64,000 nt of DNA from Escherichia coli (lineage in GTDB: Bacteria > Pseudomonadota > Gammaproteobacteria > Enterobacterales > Enterobacteriaceae). Location: NCBI RefSeq assembly GCF_044647545.1, contig NZ_CP172818.1. The stretch is one strand, 5' to 3'. Made by a program: the position numbers. Numbering within the stretch: the first letter of the stretch is position 1; every line of letters starts with the position of its first letter. This document shows, piece by piece, positions 35,701 through 38,700 of the stretch.

Positions 35701-38700
35701 TACGCTCGGAAGCCAAAATGCCCTGCAACTGGTCGCGCTCTTTTTCCAGCTCACTCTGCTCACCGCGAATCTTCATCTCTTCCAGTTTGGCAAGATGACG
35801 CAGTTTCAGTTCGAGGATCGCTTCCGCTTGGGTTTCCGTAAGGCCAAACCGCGACATCAGCGCCGGTTTCGGTTCATCTTCATTACGAATGATCTCAATC
35901 ACTTCGTCGATATTGAGAAACGCCACCAGCAAACCTTCGAGGATATGCAGGCGCTTGAGGACTTTCTCCAGACGATAATTCAGTCGGCGGCGCACGGTAT
36001 CGCGGCGGAACACCAGCCATTCGGAGAGGATTTCCAGCAGGTTTTTCACCGCCGGACGACCATCCAGACCGATCATATTGAGGTTAATGCGATAGCTCTT
36101 TTCCAGATCGGTGGTAGCAAAGAGGTGGTTCATCACCTGATCCATATCCACGCGGTTGGAACGCGGCACAATCACCAGACGGGTCGGGTTCTCGTGGTCA
36201 GATTCATCGCGCAGATCGTCAACCATCGGCAGCTTTTTGTTGCGCATTTGCGCAGCAATTTGCTCCAGTACGCGCGCACCTGAAACCTGATGCGGCAATG
36301 CGCTGATAACCACCGCGCCATCTTCTTTCTTCCAAACCGCGCGCATACGCACTGAACCACGTCCGTTCTCGTAGATTTTACGAATCTCGGCGCGCGAAGT
36401 GATAATTTCCGCTTCAGTCGGATAATCCGGCCCCTGCACGATATCCAGCAGCTGATCGAGCGTGGTTTTCGGCTGGTCGATTAATGCGATTGCCGCCTGA
36501 GCCACTTCACGCAGGTTATGCGGTGGAATATCGGTCGCCATGCCGACGGCAATACCGGTGGTGCCGTTAAGCAAAATGTTTGGCAGACGGGCAGGTAGCA
36601 TTTTCGGCTCCTGCAAAGTGCCGTCGAAGTTTGGCACCCAGTCAGCCGTCCCCTGCCCCAGCTCGCTCAATAGCAGCTCGGAATATTTCGACAACCGGGA
36701 TTCGGTGTAACGCATTGCCGCGAACGATTTCGGATCGTCCGGCGCACCCCAGTTCCCCTGACCATCAACCAGCGGATAACGGTAAGAGAACGGCTGCGCC
36801 ATCAGGACCATCGCTTCATAACAGGCAATATCGCCGTGCGGATGGTATTTACCCAGTACGTCACCGACGGTACGGGCCGATTTTTTAAATTTGGCGCTGG
36901 CATTCAGGCCCAGTTCAGACATCGCATACACAATGCGCCGCTGAACGGGTTTCAGACCATCACCAATAAACGGCAACGCACGGTCCATGATCACGTACAT
37001 GGAGTAGTTTAAGTAGGCGTTTTCCGTAAATTCATGTAGCGCAAGGCGCTCTGCCATATCGCTCATTAATTCTGATTCCTCAACTTATTCGCCAGCCTTC
37101 AAAGGGGCAATATTGCCGGAGATACTACATTATCTGCCGCGTCGAGTCACAGGAGATCAGCGTGAATAGCGCCGCCGGACGTGCTCCGACGGCGATAAAG
37201 GCATCAATGTGCCTTGATATACAACTCTTTGCTGTAGACATAATCCTGGGGATTATGCAGCGGAAAACCGCCAACGTAGGGTTTAAGCAGTTTGATTAAC
37301 GGCTGATAGTAGACAGGAATGAGCGGTGCCTGCTGGTTGATGATCACTTCGGCCTGCTGATACAACGCATTACGCTTTGTTGCATCAGCCGTTTGTGCCG
37401 CCTGGTTTAGTAAGGTGTCATACTGCGCGTTTTTCCAGTGGCCGACATTTTCCTCGCTATCGCTCTTAAGCGTGTTCAGAAAGGTGGAGGCATCATTGTA
37501 CGTCGCATCCCACGACTGCCGAGACAGCATGAAATCACCGGCTCGTCGGGCATCAAGATAAGTTTTCCACTCCATTGTGCGCAGCGTCACCTGTGCACCC
37601 AGCCATTTTTTCCATTCGGAAGACAACGCTATCGCGGTCTTTTCATGCAGATCGTACTTGTTGTAGAACAGCTCAAAGCGTAGCGGATGAGAGGCGTCGT
37701 ATCCCGCCTGTTTCAGCAAGACTTTTGCCATCGCGACGCGCTCACTCATTGGCTTTTGCAGTTCATCGAACGTCGTCGCGCTAAAGCCTTTTACCTCTGG
37801 CGGCGTCAGCGTGGTTGCGGGCGTTCTCAACCCCAGTACCTTTTGCGCAATAAGCTGTCGATCAACCGTAAGATATAGCGCCCGACGCACCCGCACATCG
37901 TTAAATGGCGGTTTCTCAAGGTTAAAGTTGTAATATTCGCTGTTCAGACGCGGAATAATTCGTAGCTCGCCAGGCAGTGATTTTTCAATGGCGGGAATTT
38001 GCTGCGCCGGAACCCAGGTGAGATCGACCTCTCCCGCGCGATAGCGGTTATAGCCGGTGACCGAATTATCCAGCGCCAGATACTCAACCTGTTGCAATAC
38101 TGTATGTTGCGCATCGCGGTACTTTGGATTTTTGCGTGCAGTAATCTTTTCGTTAACTACCCACTGATCAAGCACAAAGGCACCGTTGTAAACCATGTTC
38201 TCTGGCTTACTCCAGCTATCGCCATGTTTAGCGATGACATGATGAGGAACCGGGAACAGCGTCGGCCAGGCGAGCATCGTCGTGAACCAAGGAACTGGCT
38301 GCTCAAGCGTAACTTCAAGAGTACGATCATCCATCGCTTTGACACCCAGCGATGTAACATCTGCTTTACCCGCAACAATAGCCGCGGCATTGTTAATGTG
38401 CGCCTGTGCCAGATAGCCAGCAAAAGGGCTTGCCGTTTTCGGGTCAACCGCACGTTGCCAGCCGAGGACAAAATCCTCTGCCGTCAGAGGCTGACCGTCT
38501 GACCACTGCAAACCGCTACGTAGATGGAAAATATAGCGCTTGCCGCCGTCCAGTATCTCCCAGCATTCAGCCTGAGCGGGCTGCACCTGGCCTTCACCGT
38601 CCATCCATACCAGACCTTCAAACAGATCCAGCACAATCTGCGCGGCAGTATTCTCCTCCACCTTTTGCGGGTCGAGCGTGCCTGGGTCGCTATGATTGTT

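Follow-up and report, generated by a model that had tools for sequence, protein, structure and literature searches.

The parC gene in the 64,000-nt stretch of Escherichia coli DNA analyzed here (the window) encodes Ile at codon 80, a position at which Ser is found in K-12. Is this a genuine fluoroquinolone-resistance allele, how was it acquired, and what does it reveal about the strain? A sequence-only reading of the window had named the substitution S80I and had taken it as the mark of a quinolone-exposed clinical or veterinary lineage distinct from K-12.

The only long open reading frame across the codon-80 site is 34808..37066 on the minus strand. Its product scored 1423 bits against the NCBIfam model TIGR01062 parC_Gneg (cutoff, 629), matching over residues 5 to 738 of 752; with the same product, gyrA models scored under their own cutoffs. 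The gene shows 98.7% nucleotide identity to K-12 parC and is flanked by plsC and ygiS, with parE nearby, a gene order shared by K-12 and ST648. The positions relevant to the question are as follows:

34808..37066, minus strand: parC (DNA topoisomerase IV subunit A), intact, 752 aa in a single uninterrupted frame
36809..36844, minus strand: core of the parC QRDR, codons 75 to 86, with Ile at 80
36830..36832, minus strand: parC codon 79, GAT (Asp79)
36827..36829, minus strand: parC codon 80, ATT (Ile; S80I), AAT on the plus strand
36815..36817, minus strand: parC codon 84, GAA (Glu, wild type), the second anchor of the water-metal bridge
36707..36709, minus strand: parC codon 120, TAC (Tyr120, the catalytic residue of E. 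coli ParC), present
35642..35644, minus strand: parC codon 475, GAA (Glu; D475E compared to K-12)

The 29 nucleotide differences between the window parC and K-12 parC include 27 synonymous sites, and S80I and D475E are the only amino acid differences.

The ATT codon was read at 36829..36827, directly preceded by GAT for Asp79, and codon 84 is GAA, so that the codon assignments made by the sequence-only reading, including a wild-type E84, stand at the positions given. In a gap-free alignment to the window gene, codon 80 of K-12 MG1655 parC is AGC (Ser). Ser also occupies the residue aligned with Ile80 in the E. coli ParC crystal structure (PDB 1ZVU) and in Klebsiella topoisomerase IV structures, with the wild-type motif HPHGDSACYEAM found in both, which bears out Ser as the wild-type residue at position 80. 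The window codon is two bases apart from that of K-12 (AGC to ATT) and one base apart from an AGT wild type. The description of S80I as a classic fluoroquinolone-resistance substitution is likewise sound: among parC substitutions for quinolone resistance, it is the most frequent in E. coli (PMC11323783, PMC2714960, PMC8710580), and parC p.S80I is among the resistance mutations in published PointFinder output, ST648 included (PMC8710580).

The expected effect of the substitution can be described from the literature. Ser80 and Glu84 hydrogen-bond the waters of a Mg2+ ion that is chelated by the quinolone keto-acid; such water ligands are held by a conserved Ser and an acidic residue four positions later, Ser83/Asp87 in GyrA and Ser80/Glu84 in ParC (PMC3632122; PMC11015057; PMC11323783). 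In both E. coli topoisomerase IV and gyrase, the bridge serves mainly for positioning the drug and less for binding it, according to the part of PMC9917921 that summarizes Aldred et al. 2014, and in topoisomerase IV the drug is thereby placed for trapping the cleavage complex. Since Ile cannot anchor the bridge, topoisomerase IV with S80I would be expected to escape poisoning and to keep its catalytic competence. In E. coli, quinolones act primarily on gyrase; S80I is therefore silent alone and becomes decisive once gyrase is resistant. In isogenic MG1655 derivatives, the ciprofloxacin MIC of a strain with S80I alone was 0.016 μg/ml, equal to that of the wild type, while gyrA S83L+D87N gave 0.38 μg/ml and the addition of S80I to this double mutant gave 32 μg/ml (PMC2714960). 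GyrA S83L alone raised the MIC 24-fold and ParC S80I alone did not raise it, and the triple mutant gyrA S83L+D87N + parC S80I had a relative fitness of 1.01, i.e., no measurable cost (PMC2714960). S80I is thus a second-step mutation that matters only after gyrase has become insensitive.

The lineage of the allele was next considered. Over its full 2,259 nt, the window parC is 100% identical to that of dozens of independent complete genomes, among them CP008697 (“strain ST648”), IMT16316 (wild bird), MS6198, and ECONIH1; genomes with this parC come from humans, dogs, wild birds, a dolphin, and river water. Neither chance nor sequencing error accounts for Ile80, as the whole gene is identical in dozens of independent genomes. 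The best matches to the window were all ST648-type genomes, and the window core showed 0 to 1 mismatches per 2 kb to CP008697 across the shared sequence, as opposed to 97 to 98% identity to K-12. Fluoroquinolone-resistant ST648 thus has an identical parC and the same flanking core. None of the MLST loci adk, fumC, gyrB, icd, mdh, purA, and recA lies within the 64-kb window. The earlier statement that the lineage is not K-12 holds. Its second half needs rewording: ST648 inherits the allele clonally, so the selection that the allele attests acted on an ancestor, and it does not document exposure of this isolate.

When the window parC was reverted in silico from ATT to AGT at codon 80 and searched against complete E. 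coli genomes, eight genomes matched perfectly; ST648 genomes came next, with one mismatch. One of the eight, CLSC36 (O1:H42, from a cystitis case), matches ST648 in the gene content of the region, and its parC differs from that of the window solely at G239T. S80I is therefore a single G-to-T transversion on the lineage’s own AGT allele, turning its Ser80 codon into ATT. The distance of one base from the wild-type allele of the lineage implies that S80I arose in place and was not imported. D475E is a lineage polymorphism and not a resistance change, because CLSC36, a quinolone–wild-type relative, has it too.

Topoisomerase IV has a second subunit, encoded in the same window:

43710..45602, minus strand: parE (DNA topoisomerase IV subunit B), intact, 630 aa, found by BLAST against K-12 parE
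45087-45089, minus strand: parE codon 172, T172A compared to K-12
44229..44231, minus strand: parE codon 458, GCG (Ala; S458A), wild-type TCG

The parE product scored 1248 bits against NCBIfam TIGR01055 parE_Gneg (cutoff, 723) and differs from that of K-12 by S458A and T172A, with L416 and I529 being wild type. The S458A change, located 7.4 kb from parC codon 80, was absent from the list of the sequence-only reading. Compared to the window, parE of CLSC36 shows a difference at T1372G and, at its very 3′ end, two further base differences related to a junction; CLSC36 has Ser458 in a gene that otherwise matches that of the window. Therefore, T172A belongs to the lineage as a polymorphism, and S458A arose in the partner subunit by a further single-base change, TCG to GCG. 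Alongside S80I, S458A gives topoisomerase IV of the window a second quinolone-associated change, one reported to typify parE of ST648 (PMC8710580). The ST648 parE departs from that of the window only in its final two bases, which lie at an island junction considered below.

The gyrA gene lies outside the window, about 1 Mb away, and its state was read in relatives. CP008697, which has the same parC and parE alleles as the window, encodes GyrA HPHGDLAVYNTIV, i.e., S83L and D87N, and CLSC36, with wild-type parC and parE, encodes GyrA HPHGDSAVYDTIV, i.e., wild-type S83 and D87. The two genomes form a near-isogenic pair, I80/A458/L83/N87 versus S80/S458/S83/D87, in which parC and parE are otherwise identical. 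The pair shows that ParC S80I, ParE S458A, GyrA S83L, and GyrA D87N travel together, a pattern that agrees with the published ST648 genotype (PMC8710580). From these relatives, we infer that the source genome would also carry GyrA S83L+D87N and be highly ciprofloxacin-resistant. As such, the combination of parC S80I and parE S458A marks the sequence as derived from the fluoroquinolone-resistant ST648 clone, and gyrA S83L/D87N with high-level ciprofloxacin resistance is to be expected, a prediction of use for annotation and surveillance. Overall, we consider it highly likely that parC S80I of the window is a genuine target-site fluoroquinolone-resistance allele of ST648 (phylogroup F) type.

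The same comparison with ST648 revealed that parts of the window do not look natural. Segments that are present in ST648 but not in K-12 are each missing or damaged in the window:

2..650, upstream of yghQ: 68% identity to the ST648 counterpart
8979..10031, between yghU and hybG: an 85%-identical copy of the IS3 found here in ST648, bordered by poly-C and poly-A
29007..30018, between yqhH and ygiQ: two hypothetical genes, with 71% identity at the start, decaying into poly-A
32290..32348, between ftsP and ygiQ: K-12–type empty site in place of a TRAP-transporter/dehydrogenase island of about 7.7 kb
43661..43713, between ygiN and parE: K-12–type empty site in place of an island of about 7.3 kb with a TonB-dependent receptor and a FecCD ABC transporter
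51788..51954, between ygiC and ygiD: 167 nt of poly-A/C in place of the assT-dsbL-dsbI island of about 3.7 kb

Identities in the degraded segments were taken from sensitive BLAST, as global alignment identities are uninformative there. The flanks of both empty sites are 100% ST648-type. All close ST648 relatives have the three accessory islands that the window lacks, and ST648-specific DNA, islands included, is either absent from the window or replaced by non-natural filler. The window thus departs from the regional gene content of ST648 (the TRAP, TonB/ABC, and assT-dsbL-dsbI islands, the IS3, and the hypothetical genes).

Composition sets these segments apart as well. The window contains 23 homopolymer runs of 9 to 31 nt, all but one inside the anomalous segments; the lone outside run, a 9-nt A at 24286, is also present in both controls (ST648, 100 kb; K-12, 80 kb), each of which contains one 9-nt run. 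Three window segments had 3-mer entropy under the lowest value of the controls (180 kb). The window junctions and filler were found in no complete E. coli genome (5,426 searched), and the absence of the three islands with ST648-type flanks was seen in 0 of 5,425 complete genomes. Queries of 24 kb, of 2 kb across the ygiN/parE junction, and of 2.2 kb across the 29- to 30-kb stretch revealed no close relative with a collinear arrangement among these genomes; at the ygiN/parE junction, the closest collinear match, in ST361-type genomes, was only 97.5% identical.

At the 3′ end of parE (43710-43714), the last Val and the stop codon are K-12–type (GTT TAA) and not ST648-type (GTC TGA). The island junction begins at this point, so that parE passes from ST648-type to generic sequence within its final 4 nt.

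The anomalous stretches are probably an artefact of assembly, consensus, or generation; the window probably does not represent a natural assembly faithfully and may not record a single isolate. The anomalies would fit a neural or reference-guided consensus, and they would also fit generated or in-filled sequence. Errors in the CP008697 assembly were considered as the source of the many small gaps between it and the window and rejected, since alignment to CLSC36 gave these gaps too and they cluster at the degraded segments of the window. A K-12–guided consensus of ST648 reads fits poorly, as K-12–only mqsRA and ygiL-yqiGHI are also absent. The mqsRA toxin-antitoxin pair, which lies between ygiS and ygiV in K-12, is missing at 38912-38918, and the K-12 ygiL-yqiGHI fimbrial operon is missing at 55408-55415, in both cases as in ST648; these two absences are ordinary lineage-specific gene content.

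That a real chromosome carries these anomalous stretches is very unlikely. It would have to be an ST648-derived chromosome in which three islands were lost with precise restoration of the ancestral empty sites, with genuine 20- to 30-nt poly-A and poly-C tracts, a decayed IS3, and two more decayed segments, a combination to which we assign a very small probability. If true, it would amount to an unusual targeted genome reduction around parC-parE, and the S80I allele would still be ordinary. The anomalous segments touch neither parC nor parE. Inferences about “the strain” nevertheless need care because of the non-natural stretches, and the presence of these stretches is a more useful message than the S80I allele.

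Could the process behind the non-natural parts, be it consensus, polishing, or sequence generation, have also produced the Ile80 base? The low-complexity, degraded stretches, whose homopolymers reach 31 nt, and the junctions that no complete E. coli genome shares would speak for such an origin. However, the anomalies are all confined to sites of ST648 accessory DNA, all 2,259 nt of parC match dozens of natural genomes base for base, and a second, independent resistance base is present in parE. Two random errors at both known resistance positions, in ~60 kb with about a dozen mismatches, are not credible, and an artefactual Ile80 is accordingly most improbable.

Acquisition of QRDR alleles by recombination is known in E. 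coli, including in some pandemic clones (ST1193). An import of the parC allele, with or without that of parE, from another resistant lineage by homologous recombination therefore has to be weighed, also because the two genes are only 7 kb apart and could move jointly. Yet parC is exactly one base away from the wild-type allele of the lineage, and the same is true of parE; the surrounding ~60 kb contains no divergent block relative to ST648 relatives, with 0 to 1 mismatches per 2 kb; and ATT fits the local AGT background, most other resistant lineages having ATC instead. We consider import highly doubtful and origin in place the preferred reading.

The codon backgrounds were compared by counting exact 63-mer matches around codon 80 in about 5,350 complete E. 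coli genomes:

AGC (Ser): 2,729 genomes
AGT (Ser): 688 genomes
ATC (Ile): 1,245 genomes
ATT (Ile): 124 genomes
ATT with E84V (Ile): 372 genomes

The four single-codon 63-mers total 4,786 genomes, and 5,158 of about 5,350 are covered when ATT with E84V is added, other flanking variants being left out of the counts. Ile80 is thus present in about a third of the complete genomes (at least 1,741 of about 5,350). Because it occurs on differing codon backgrounds, the same amino acid change must have arisen on each. ATC-type S80I, on the AGC background, uses a different codon than the window, where ATT derives from AGT, which indicates that the two types are of independent origin.

That Ile80, like D475E, is a neutral polymorphism of phylogroup F or ST648 unrelated to quinolones is largely refuted and hardly tenable: parC does have other lineage differences from K-12 (the 27 synonymous sites and D475E), and S80I alone leaves MIC and fitness unchanged (PMC2714960), but the same allele with Ser80 exists in eight genomes, Ile80 goes with ParE S458A and GyrA S83L/D87N in the CP008697/CLSC36 pair while Ser80 goes with the wild type, the substitution recurs on another codon background in >1,200 other genomes, and adding S80I to a gyrA double mutant lifts the MIC about 80-fold (PMC2714960).

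Published work covers the substitution, how it acts, its epistasis with gyrA, and the link to ST648, and the allele is already known. A laboratory counterpart is LM693 (MG1655 gyrA S83L D87N parC S80I), which shares the substitution, the bridge serine, and the expected phenotype (PMC2714960). GyrA S83L affects the homologous serine in the paralogous DNA gyrase, which, unlike topoisomerase IV, is the primary quinolone target. The ST131-H30–type allele (the 372 genomes with E84V) has the same ATT codon on the AGT background as the window. It differs in that E84V alters the second bridge anchor, which is wild type in the window, and ST131 has parE I529L (PMC8710580), while I529 of the window is wild type.
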